Sequence record: OR424388.1
Length of the DNA stretch: 64,000 bases
Direction: 5' to 3' (one strand)
From: Escherichia phage HEMP5
Both the position numbers and the translations under genes were made by a program. This document shows, piece by piece, positions 51,039-53,496 of the stretch. The notes beneath the pieces were generated by a model, which did not search any database, had not been told where the DNA came from, and saw only the letters and a list, made by a program, of their open reading frames with translations. Position 1 is the stretch's first letter; each line of letters starts with the position of its first letter.

Positions 51039-51172
51039 CGTTTTGTGAAAAATTTTTTAAAAAGTTTTGGGGGAATTCTAGGGCAGGGAGGGGCAATTAA
51101 AGGATAGGATAATATATTATAAAGGATAGAAACTAAATGATGCCTAGAGAGGCCCAGAAAGGTCTAGATGCC

Positions 51173-51199
51173 AAAAAGCCCCAACCTTTCGGAAGGGGC
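51173..51199 (-). terminator. rho-independent terminator at the distal end of the tRNA/stable RNA transcription unit
   Basis: GCCCC...GGGGC stem with an inner CC-UUUC-GG hairpin, followed by U5 on the minus RNA. Confidence 0.55.
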
Positions 51200-51500
51200 T
51201 AAGCCTTGCGGCAACCTTGTCGGGGTTCCACCTGCTAAGGCAAGTGTTTGTACGAAACGCCGGGATTCGAACCCGATTATTAAGTAGTTGACGCTACTCA
51301 ATATTTTTAAAAGGCCATATCTCGACCATATCCGAACGTTCCGTCAAAAACGCTACTCGGCTTACGGCAAAGATATTTCCTCGAATCGATAATTCGGTGC
51401 GCCGTTTCTGCTGTGATATAAGGGGGCATTAACAAAACATAAAGATTTATTAATGCCAGTCCTTAAACAGGGAACATCAGTCCGACGACTTGCCGGTAGC
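51200..51500 (-). ncRNA. region likely encoding the small stable RNAs that follow the tRNAs in T-even phages (RNA C/D-like)
   Basis: No ORF; contains a tRNA-like T-arm (CGGGUUCGAAUCCCG at about 51261-51276) without a matching acceptor stem; boundaries approximate. Confidence 0.35.
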
Positions 51501-51516
51501 GACCCGGCTTCTTGTT

Positions 51517-51591
51517 TGGTATCCCGCCCTGGGATCGAACCAGGACCGCAAACTTAGAAGGATCGTATGCTATCCATTACACCAGCGGGAC
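51517..51591 (-). tRNA. tRNA-Arg (anticodon UCU), CCA encoded
   Basis: Hand-folded cloverleaf: 7-bp acceptor stem, T-arm CCUGG-UUCGAUC-CCAGG, anticodon loop CUUCUAA. Confidence 0.8.
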
Positions 51592-52213
51592 GTAATTTAT
51601 TTAAAAGACAAGACAAATCGGAAATCTCATCTTTTTCTAAAACTACCAAATTTTCTAAAGCTTTCCATTTACAAAGATCTCTATCTCTTTTATATCCTTT
51701 GACTTCTATATAAAAATCATAAGTGGGTAAATAAAAATCAGGAAAATAGAGATGTTCTGAACCTTCCCATTCGTAAGGAATTGGCTTTATTTTATTAGTA
51801 TATTTGATATTGTGTTCTTTTAAAAACTTAGCAACTTTTAATTCCCAGGTCCCTTTAAATTTAAACCCGTCAAACTCATATGTTTTTACTCGACCAGAAA
51901 CATTAGAAGCAGAATATGAATCAGGATTATCAAGAACAGCTTGCCGCATTCTTTTAGAATGTGCTTCTTTGCGTTCATTAGACCATACATATCCAGTATT
52001 GGCTTTTCTAAGTTTTTCTCTAGTTTTATCAGAGACTTTTATTTCTTTACCTAGTTCTTTGGCTTTGGTAAATTGATTACTACCTTTAAGACCATAACGA
52101 GGGTTATTAGGGCCGCTCATATCTAATCTATTTGGGTTAGATTTGCACCGTTTTTCATGCTGCTTTAGTGAATTTAAATTTTTACATTCTTTAGAACAAT
52201 ATTGACAAAGCAT
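51554..52213 (-). CDS. putative nuclease with N-terminal C2HC zinc finger and C-terminal PD-(D/E)xK-like motif; possible free-standing homing-type endonuclease
   Basis: 219 aa from ATG with GGAG RBS; CQYCSKECKNLNSLKQHEKRC and HLYFPDFYLP...DFYIEVKGYK; the last about 12 codons overlap the 5' end of tRNA-Arg; no GIY-YIG motif. Confidence 0.65.
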   Translation of the reverse strand: MLCQYCSKECKNLNSLKQHEKRCKSNPNRLDMSGPNNPRYGLKGSNQFTKAKELGKEIKVSDKTREKLRKANTGYVWSNERKEAHSKRMRQAVLDNPDSYSASNVSGRVKTYEFDGFKFKGTWELKVAKFLKEHNIKYTNKIKPIPYEWEGSEHLYFPDFYLPTYDFYIEVKGYKRDRDLCKWKALENLVVLEKDEISDLSCLLNKLRPAGVMDSIRSF

Positions 52214-52282
52214 AATTTTCTCCATGAATTTTATATAGATATTTATTCATGGAGAAGTTGACTGCTCTACCTAATCAAAATA

Positions 52283-52782: not shown

Positions 52783-52788
52783 GCTATA

Positions 52789-53397
52789 TTATTTATTACG
52801 TGAAAAAGACTGTTCTATCAATTCTGGACACTTTCGTTCTATCCATTTTCTAGCTTTTTGTGGGCTTATACCTATTATTTTAGCAGCTTTACTAACCCAT
52901 CCAAATTTAGAATAATCGATTTTAACTAATTCTTCGTAAATTTCATCAGTTAAAATCTTTTCATTAATATTTACCAGTAAATGATATAATTTATTATCAT
53001 TAGCAATTTTAATGAATCTTTTATAGTTTCCGCCTTTACTTAAACCTAATGAAGTAATTGCAGATGATATAGTAGCCGAATTTAATAGTGCGTTTAAAAT
53101 TTCTTCATCACTAACATTATAACGCTTTCTATTATTTTTAATATTTTTACCAGCAAAAGTATCAGTTTGCGAATGGCAATTTGGACATAATAATCTTAAA
53201 TTTGATTTAAGATGATTTTTGTTATTTCCATCAATATGGTCTAATTGTAGAACAATATGCTTATTTTGCCATTTTGAAATTTTACAAATTGCGCACTCAT
53301 ATGGAAAAATATTTTCTTTTATTATTTTGTCTTTCAGCTTTCCTGTACTAAAATTTGGATGTTTTCCTTCAAAAATTTCAGCTAATTTAGTATCCAT
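52789..53397 (-). CDS. HNH-family endonuclease (free-standing homing-endonuclease-like)
   Basis: 202 aa from ATG (the six-frame ORF begins at an upstream TTG); HNH motif HLDHIDGNNKNHLKSNLRLLCPNCH; stop abuts the tRNA-Leu 5' end. Confidence 0.8.
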   Translation of the reverse strand: MDTKLAEIFEGKHPNFSTGKLKDKIIKENIFPYECAICKISKWQNKHIVLQLDHIDGNNKNHLKSNLRLLCPNCHSQTDTFAGKNIKNNRKRYNVSDEEILNALLNSATISSAITSLGLSKGGNYKRFIKIANDNKLYHLLVNINEKILTDEIYEELVKIDYSKFGWVSKAAKIIGISPQKARKWIERKCPELIEQSFSRNK

Positions 53398-53496
53398 AAT
53401 ATGATTCCCAATTATTAACAAAGGCTCTCAAACAAGAACCCTTGATGATAGAGGGTATTAATCAGTGCGGTATGAGTTAATAATAACAAATAATTC

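Follow-up and report, generated by a model that had tools for sequence, protein, structure and literature searches.

Two small stable RNAs are known to be contained in the tRNA precursors of T-even phages: species I RNA, which is encoded by rnaC, and species II RNA, which is encoded by rnaD. The maturation of species I RNA reportedly depends on RNase P, according to work attributed to the Apirion and McClain laboratories, and T4 mutants that have lost the tRNA region remain viable. Both RNAs have been classed as late and T4 RNAC has been detected by northern blot (PMC9697503), and transcription of the operon continues to a point past species I RNA (PMC2330249). In a 1978 catalogue, which appears in the reference list of one publication (PMC11143913), the two RNAs are termed "transfer RNA-like molecules." The function of the two RNAs is given as unknown (PMC3014915, PMC9697503), a question that has stood open since the 1970s (PMC3014915, PMC9697503, PMC12685909).

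Several other RNAs provide points of comparison for rnaC. YrlA RNAs, which are Y-RNA-like tRNA mimics of enterobacteria and some phages, are non-coding and carry a tRNA-like module. The rings formed by phi29 pRNA and the TAR/TAR* complex are precedents for kissing interactions between RNA loops. A third point of comparison is tmRNA, which is described as an RNA processed by RNase P (PMC3985003).

The present study concerns the corresponding locus of Escherichia phage HEMP5, a T4-like phage of the genus Tequatrovirus (sequence record OR424388.1). The window, that is, the whole stretch of DNA that was analyzed, comprises 64,000 nt; all positions refer to it, and the features described below lie on its minus strand. 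The initial annotation had flagged positions 51200 to 51500, distal to tRNA-Arg, as a structured region without ORFs that would fit the two small stable RNAs of T-even tRNA precursors. It is very likely that two stable RNAs indeed form the tail of the tRNA operon and that one of them, rnaC, is a tRNA mimic; the following sections establish which RNAs these are, how rnaC folds, and that its gene is placed like a tRNA gene.

Identity and Boundaries of the Two RNAs

Judged from its sequence, the region is the pair of T-even stable RNAs, rnaD (species II RNA) and rnaC (species I RNA). Local BLAST against annotated relatives placed rnaD at approximately 51515 to 51395, a length of about 121 nt, with 100% identity to the annotated rnaD of RB3, 87% to the T4 stretch, and 76% to T2L. 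Homology, published annotations, and a covariance model placed rnaC at 51249 to 51388. Its 140 nt run from C1 to the A that is equivalent to position 76 of a tRNA, and BLAST over 139 nt showed 98.6% identity to annotated RB3 rnaC, 98.6% to the T4 stretch, and 97.8% to T2L. In the records of RB3 (KM606994, AJ884578), T2L (AJ880101), and T4T (HM137666), rnaD and then rnaC follow tRNA-Arg, each annotated as "small, stable RNA." The positions in the window agree with this arrangement: rnaD lies directly 3′ of tRNA-Arg and 5′ of rnaC, and rnaC is the final RNA gene of the operon, between rnaD and the terminator and e.8. The proposed fit to the two T-even RNAs was therefore right, because homologous annotated genes are present in the same order at 87 to 100% identity; as regards the rnaD and rnaC genes as such, which were already known, it was a correct rediscovery. 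The structural detail reported here, in particular the acceptor stem at the termini and the pair of kissing loops, may be new relative to the literature.

Compared to the species I and II RNAs of T4, nothing essential differs in HEMP5. The genes, their order and sizes, the terminator, and the downstream e.8 context are the same, and a SegB-like gene is found between tRNA-Ile and tRNA-Arg, as in T4. The rnaD of the window is, however, of the RB3 type, and its central hairpin differs from those of T4 and T2.

The boundaries of the RNAs, which had been held not to be derivable from sequence, can be deduced from its tRNA-like ends and the published annotations with an uncertainty of about 2 nt. 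Records AJ884578 and AJ880101 give rnaC exactly from C1 to the tRNA-76 equivalent (140 nt), and the T4T record gives it from −1 to position 74 (139 nt), which corresponds to 51389 to 51251 in the window. The flagged interval lies inside the true unit of rnaD, rnaC, trailer, and terminator, which spans 51172 to 51516, but it clips the 5′ end of rnaD and the U-run of the terminator.

The view of the region as structured RNA was supported by folding, in which both stretches performed better than shuffled sequences (z = −3.5 for rnaC and −3.2 for rnaD). No Rfam family was found for either RNA, at the gathering score or at E ≤ 10, and the matches obtained at E ≤ 10 were at chance level only (tRNA-Sec with 17.5 bits, the sole match from the tRNA clan, as well as a snoRNA, isrK, and sX14). 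A covariance model, R1, was built from a first alignment of 9 sequences representing seven genera and was used to search all fetched loci. With this model, the rnaC of the window scores 162.7 bits and true tRNAs score 19 to 26 bits, in line with a likeness of rnaC to tRNA. A 371-nt query over the region matched 742 phage records, mainly of Escherichia and Shigella Tequatrovirus, and in 679 of the 742 the match extends over 80% or more of the region; a second search, with the 272-nt core as query, had a top match of 99.6% identity.

Organization of the Operon Tail

ARAGORN and Rfam identified seven tRNAs in the whole window, all on the minus strand. The genes for tRNA-Leu, -Gly, -Pro, -Ser, -Thr, and -Ile(CAU) follow one another in this order from 52782 to 52283, and are succeeded by a homing-endonuclease-like ORF and then by tRNA-Arg(UCU) (51517 to 51591; found by ARAGORN and scored by the Rfam tRNA model at 48.8 bits), which is the final tRNA of the cluster. 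CCA is encoded in tRNA-Arg, -Ser, -Gly, and -Leu and is not encoded in tRNA-Ile, -Thr, and -Pro, as seen from the 3′ ends of the tRNAs in the window. rnaD starts 1 to 2 nt past the CCA of tRNA-Arg. The initial annotation had considered that a scanner might fold the region beyond this point into an eighth tRNA. ARAGORN reported seven tRNAs and none at 51200 to 51516, and the Rfam scan at the gathering score returned the same seven only.

Downstream of rnaC, a 3′ trailer that is predicted to form small hairpins (51201 to 51248) leads to an intrinsic terminator (51172 to 51200), in which GCCCCUUCCGAAAGGUUGGGGC is followed by UUUUU. This hairpin and U-run, at 51200 to 51172, bear out the cluster terminator that had been proposed from the sequence, and record MK327928 carries a terminator annotation for the element. 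VR7 and AV115 share the trailer, which is kept where rnaC forms the end of the operon.

The tRNA-Like Half of rnaC

An independent MAFFT alignment (A4) of 26 distinct rnaC sequences from nine genera was analyzed for covariation. At the level of sequence comparison, this analysis demonstrated that rnaC has a four-way, tRNA-like fold. Among the 26 sequences, standard pairs accounted for 93.8% of the cells of the four-way structure, compared to 38 to 46% when the partners were slid by 1 to 3 columns, and 25 of the 48 pairs carried changes on both sides, a number that was reached by 0 of 500 shuffles.

The acceptor stem is formed by the two ends of the RNA. Its 5′ strand, CGAUUCG (51382 to 51388), is the very 5′ terminus of rnaC, lies 130 nt upstream of the T-arm, and pairs with the 3′ strand CGUUUCG (51253 to 51259), which follows the T-stem with zero spacer. 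The initial annotation had seen no complementary acceptor stem for the T-arm, a statement that does not hold, as this helix is present and covaries across genera. The third acceptor pair is G-C in 14 of the 26 sequences and A-U in the other 12. The two central U.U pairs are replaced by U-A and C-G in the Tegunavirus lineage, which gives a perfect stem of 7 bp; a perfect 7-bp acceptor stem is seen in phiR1-RT.

The T-arm (51260 to 51276) consists of a 5-bp stem and the 7-nt loop UUCGAAU. It had been described as perfect, which was confirmed (51276 to 51260; U/CGGG-UUCGAAU-CCCGG), with a U.G pair here that is C-G in most relatives. The only perfect occurrence of GGTTCGAATCC in the 64-kb window is at 51273 to 51263; when up to one mismatch is allowed, 5 matches are found compared to 0.53 expected, and the four besides this one all fall within real tRNAs. 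Across the alignment, 99.2% of the T-arm cells are paired and 2 of the 5 pairs have both partners changed. The IME523 type of Kanagawavirus and Winklervirus have a non-canonical T-loop (UGCAUGC or UGCAUUC), so that strict T-loop recognition is not universal. With the 7-bp acceptor stem abutting the 5-bp T-arm, rnaC contains the 12-bp "top half" of a tRNA.

In place of the N73-CCA of a tRNA, rnaC carries the 3′ tail UACA (51249 to 51252). In comparison with the 3′ ends of the tRNAs in the window, this U-ACA resembles the tRNAs without an encoded CCA (Ile, Thr, and Pro). Across genera the tail reads U-N-C-A-A, with UCCA in Marfavirus and UUCA in Tegunavirus. The nucleotide at position −1 of rnaC is U or A.

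Compared to canonical tRNA (RF00005), rnaC exhibits several common features. First, a 7-bp acceptor stem is assembled from both ends of the molecule and is abutted by a 5-bp T-stem with the loop UUCGAAU. Second, the tail is like N73 followed by xCA. Third, the gene occurs in arrays of tRNAs and is spaced as a tRNA gene would be. However, rnaC is 140 nt long, compared to 70 to 95 nt for tRNAs, and is without a D-arm or a 7-nt anticodon loop; its acceptor stem has two central U.U pairs, and it is missed by ARAGORN and at the Rfam threshold. rnaC is tRNA-like in its top half only and is not a tRNA. It cannot decode. The D-arm has given way to an arm of about 70 nt, and the anticodon arm to a hairpin of 10 bp whose loop has 6 nt.

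The locus could also be read as concealing, within rnaC, an eighth and unusual tRNA for Lys or Phe, 94 to 96 nt in length with a long extra arm. Such a tRNA would use an internal acceptor strand, ACGGAACG (51344 to 51337), paired with CGUUUCGU (51259 to 51252), and all 8 of these 8 pairs do form in the window sequence. In sister genomes ARAGORN calls tRNA-Lys(ttt) (G2133) and tRNA-Phe(gaa) (KKP_3262 and L012) in the same place, and Rfam yields a weak tRNA-Sec alignment over 51252 to 51344. This alignment, however, reaches 17.5 bits, far below the Rfam cut-off of 47 bits, ARAGORN is silent both in the window and in T4, and the inferred "anticodon" shifts with a 1-nt indel. Furthermore, the internal helix is without any pair that is changed on both sides, and one of its pairs fails to form in 14 of the 26 sequences; the internal strand pairs locally with GCGUUUU instead, in a helix in which 5 of 7 pairs are compensatory. 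A hidden tRNA is thus barely conceivable, and the tRNA-Lys and tRNA-Phe calls were rejected as artefacts whose pairing is without covariation support.

As a partial mimic, rnaC resembles tmRNA in that only the acceptor/T-arm half is mimicked and the remainder would be closed by tertiary pairing. Unlike tmRNA, rnaC is without G3.U70, the identity pair for alanine, position 3:70 being A-U or G-C, and without a tag reading frame. No tmRNA was found in the window, either by ARAGORN or by Rfam at E ≤ 10. Compared to the YrlA RNAs, rnaC has no Rfam match at E ≤ 10 and no evident Ro-binding helix; E. coli is not known to carry Rsr.

The Body of rnaC and Its Probable Loop–Loop Contact

The position of the D-arm is taken in rnaC by a long compound arm of about 70 nt (helices 2 to 4; 51312 to 51381), in which 14 of 26 pairs are changed on both sides. 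Its first element, helix 2 (AGG/CCU), adjoins the acceptor stem directly. A second and unrelated sequence type of the long arm is found in Gelderlandvirus, PEi26, Marfavirus, Moonvirus, and others, with its length and apical loop unchanged. The arm is followed by a linker of 8 nt, UUUAAAAA (51304 to 51311), which is single stranded in the consensus fold, and then by a 10-bp hairpin in the position of the anticodon arm (51278 to 51303), in which 7 of 10 pairs are changed on both sides. The AAAAU run at 51307 to 51303, made up of four linker A's and the first U of the hairpin, is invariant in A4, and a single unpaired nucleotide lies between the hairpin and the T-arm.

The apical loops of the two arms are complementary to each other. 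Loop A, UUGACG (51342 to 51347), forms the apex of the long arm, and loop B, CGUCAA (51293 to 51288), is the 6-nt loop of the 10-bp hairpin. The loops pair at all 6 of their 6 positions in every one of the 26 sequences, and two compensatory events have occurred at different positions, giving UUGAUG/CAUCAA in Tegunavirus and UUGGCG/CGCCAA in Marfavirus. Further copies of the Marfavirus type from IMG/VR and metagenomes agree with the loop pairing. Two complementary and covarying apical loops point to a kissing interaction. Single covarying pairs can arise by descent, and the case for kissing therefore rests on the contiguous complementarity of six bases and on the exact antiparallel placement of the two changes. 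Indeed, many column pairs seemed to covary by shared descent within few lineages in an all-against-all column search, and this search for partners of the T-loop or other tertiary contacts yielded nothing usable, as it was swamped by lineage-specific substitutions.

The UUGACG/CGUCAA pairing would lock the body of rnaC or, alternatively, link two molecules. Covariation cannot separate intramolecular from intermolecular pairing of the loops, and two mutually complementary 6-nt loops that covary on one RNA follow the same logic as the rings of pRNA. The loops of rnaC might accordingly be imagined to pair between molecules, resulting in dimers, in rings like those of phi29 pRNA, or in a multimeric scaffold. 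The likeness to phi29 pRNA and TAR/TAR* lies in the covarying, complementary 6-nt loops, with no homology in sequence or fold, and no T4 process is known to require an RNA scaffold. Moreover, the same arm length in two unrelated types fits an arm that needs to reach its partner, which argues for a partner within the same molecule. Pairing between molecules is thus considered improbable compared to a contact within one rnaC molecule.

At the DNA level, the TTGACG of loop A was also considered as a sigma-70 −35 box. This reading was discarded, as a suitably spaced −10 box is missing and the variants preserve the loop complementarity, not the hexamer.

Structure of rnaD

Fourteen distinct copies of rnaD were recovered, 13 of which were aligned, from Tequatrovirus, Dhakavirus (IME08), and Gaprivervirus (VR7). 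Hairpin 1 (51492 to 51508; GCCGG-GUCGCUA-CCGGC) consists of a 5-bp stem and a 7-nt loop. Its closing pair covaries, being A-U in 9, G-C in 3, and G-U in 1 of the 13 sequences, and the rest of the hairpin is invariant. A closing helix, in which the 5′ strand GUCGUCG (51483 to 51489) would pair with CGGCG(C)AC (51404 to 51397), was predicted in both MFE and consensus folds; it is invariant in 13 of 13 sequences, so that covariation neither supports nor contradicts it. The conserved ends of rnaD are invariant in the same way, and their fold is therefore not definable by covariation.

Between these ends lies a hypervariable central hairpin (51419 to 51465), of which there are at least three unrelated types (T4/RB3, T2, and IME08). 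It is flanked by invariant blocks of about 45 nt on the 5′ side and about 24 nt on the 3′ side. An inner CUG/CAG helix that was predicted for rnaD was discarded, as it is broken in 2 of 6 sequences.

Distribution Among T4-Like Phages

Full-length rnaC was found in Tequatrovirus, Gaprivervirus (VR7), Karamvirus, Winklervirus, Kanagawavirus, Tegunavirus, Gelderlandvirus, Moonvirus, and Marfavirus. In other genera it is located within tRNA arrays, with spacers of 4 to 9 nt on each side, like a tRNA gene. In KKP_3262, for example, rnaC extends from C1 at position 503 of the locus to the A76 equivalent at 643, between tRNA-Trp, which ends at 495, and tRNA-Gly, which starts at 648. rnaC is also kept without any tRNA within loci of about 1 kb, namely in VR7, PEi26, KLB31, and Kosakonia phage 305.

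The two RNAs do not always occur together. rnaD is missing from most genera that carry rnaC, and IME08 has rnaD without rnaC. In Mosigvirus AV115, rnaC is reduced to its last 29 nt and rnaD is gone, which indicates that some lineages can do without the two RNAs. Pattern scans of IMG/VR, JGI metagenomes, and GTDB, which left the loops unconstrained but were otherwise strict and could miss distant relatives, found copies in T4-like phages only, with no bacterial homologue and no new loop variant.

Proposed Processing and Possible Functions

In the mechanism proposed here, rnaD and rnaC would be transcribed as the tail of the operon and excised from the tRNA precursor. The structure, read in the light of tRNA biology, suggests that RNase P would cut at C1 (51388) with the 12-bp acceptor/T-arm stack as its substrate. 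The structural prerequisites of the enzyme, a 12-bp acceptor/T stack and a U or A at −1, are found in rnaC, which is thus a predicted substrate. The same cut at C1 would free the 3′ side of rnaD, and the 5′ end of rnaD would arise from the 3′ processing of tRNA-Arg. The 3′ end of rnaC would probably be trimmed as in tRNAs without an encoded CCA, possibly with addition of CCA. The tRNA-like ends and the compact fold may then account for the stability of rnaC.

Given such a pathway, both RNAs might be without any function in trans, that is, stable by-products or spacers that supply sites for RNase P and RNase E as well as the terminator. Both are cut from the tRNA precursor (PMC2330249), rnaD fills exactly the gap between tRNA-Arg and rnaC, and the remnant of rnaC in AV115, which has no rnaD, is in line with this explanation, as is the fact that no phenotype is reported in the accessible literature. 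However, the parts of rnaC that are not tRNA-like (the length of the arm, both loops, and the AAAAU run) have been kept across nine genera and in two arm types, and rnaC is retained where no tRNAs are adjacent. For rnaD, 45 and 24 invariant nucleotides surround a hypervariable core, and a convergent SNP in rnaD was found in all phage lines adapted to the host ECOR34 (PMC12685909). These observations speak against mere by-products, and an absence of function in trans is regarded as unlikely.

The likeliest role, suggested tentatively, is that rnaC, being stable and shaped like a tRNA, serves as the ligand or decoy of a protein by which the acceptor/T-arm half is recognized. A more specific proposal is that rnaC is a distinct phage mimic of half a tRNA, closed through its loops as a ring or as linked molecules and acting in trans, and that rnaD is relevant for host range; this combination is more doubtful. 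If true, rnaC could be a decoy against a tRNA-targeting defence, through a host or phage factor that recognizes tRNA. The structure provides testable handles for such studies, namely the tRNA-like top half, the covarying loop contact, the conservation across nine genera including tRNA-less loci, and the exact nucleotides involved.

Annotation of the Locus

At this locus, tRNA scanners and ORF callers give rise to erroneous annotations, namely of tRNA-Lys, tRNA-Phe, or hypothetical proteins. The region had been described as containing no ORF, which is correct in that no credible gene is present; mechanical ORFs of 34 to 45 aa with TTG starts do exist. It has been necessary to consider two of them as possible small proteins, an ORF of 42 aa at 51307 to 51435 and one of 45 aa at 51164 to 51301, both on the minus strand. 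Besides existing mechanically, they appear as hypothetical proteins in many GenBank records and match phrog_24262 and phrog_28391, both of unknown function. However, both ORFs begin with TTG, and they span the rnaD/rnaC or the rnaC/trailer/terminator junctions, missing in genera in which rnaC is flanked by tRNAs. They are not conserved beyond Tequatrovirus, whereas rnaC is, and the substitutions are paired and preserve the helices. The two PHROG families that match ORFs across the locus may have been assembled from such ORFs, and wrong annotation of one conserved stretch of DNA in record after record could explain them. It is thus very improbable that the region encodes small proteins.

A simple terminator scan did not detect the real terminator because of its internal U.U mismatches, and flagged the plus-strand complement of rnaD hairpin 1 instead.

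Misannotation of the rnaD–rnaC locus

The genes of the two small stable RNAs, rnaD (species II) and rnaC (species I), have been read both as protein-coding sequence and as tRNA. Two PHROG families of unknown function, phrog_24262 and phrog_28391, match minus-strand ORFs of the window at 51307-51435 and 51164-51301 (E = 1e-30 to 1e-34), and these ORFs are translations across rnaD/rnaC and rnaC/terminator, respectively. Both families were probably assembled from ORFs that had been mis-called over RNA genes. Within rnaC, ARAGORN called a tRNA-Lys(ttt) or tRNA-Phe(gaa) of 94-96 nt, as did deposited annotations, in three related phage genomes (in the coordinates of each locus, L002 478-571, L008 547-642, and L012 7816-7911). 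A 1-nt indel in an A-run is enough to switch this call on or off. Covariation gives no support to either tRNA.

In Mosigvirus AV115 (OR352945), the annotated "tRNA-Asn" (L146 651-724; counterpart of window 51273-51245 and the trailer 3′ of rnaC) is a chimera consisting of the 5′ three quarters of tRNA-Asn(GUU) followed by the last 29 nt of rnaC, after which the trailer and terminator continue. Its acceptor stem is broken, and it scores 26.3 bits with the Rfam tRNA model, under the 29-bit cut-off. The junction falls inside the T-loop GGTTCGAATCC, which tRNA-Asn and rnaC have in common. Judging from this arrangement, AV115 appears to have lost rnaD and most of rnaC through a deletion or recombination in the T-loop.

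Variation in related phages

Gaprivervirus VR7 (NC_014792; L046 295-425) retains both stable RNA genes, rnaD and rnaC, as well as the trailer and terminator, with no tRNA inside 1 kb of the locus. The tRNA-Arg upstream of rnaD is reduced to its final 6 nt, AUACCA, and the annotated end of the CDS VR7ORF148c overlaps the rnaD start. The T-loop of rnaC differs in Kanagawavirus (L007, L017, L041) and Winklervirus (L006), where UGCAUGC or UGCAUUC replaces UUCGAAU. These loops lack the canonical U54/A58 and U55 positions, but the stem is preserved, as is the rest of the RNA.

The 8-mer AGUAGCGU is present twice in rnaC (51357-51350 and 51298-51291, minus strand), each copy being the strand that runs into one of its two complementary loops. 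CGCUAC in rnaD hairpin-1 complements this 8-mer; chance would be expected to produce a 6-mer match between rnaC and rnaD.

ORFs flanking the tRNA genes

No tRNA-Gln was found in the window. RB3 carries tRNA-Gln directly upstream of tRNA-Leu, whereas the window has there a 210-aa ORF (52783-53421, minus strand) with an HNH-like motif (HIDGNNKNH...CPNCH), which stops 6 nt ahead of tRNA-Leu and had zero Pfam matches at E<=0.001. At the SegB position lies a homing-endonuclease-like ORF of 223 aa (51554-52225, minus strand), for which the only Pfam match was Phage_endo_I, weak at 21.7 bits and under the cut-off. In T4, the CDS at this position ends 5 nt short of the tRNA, whereas the window ORF overlaps tRNA-Arg, its stop sitting 38 nt inside the tRNA gene.
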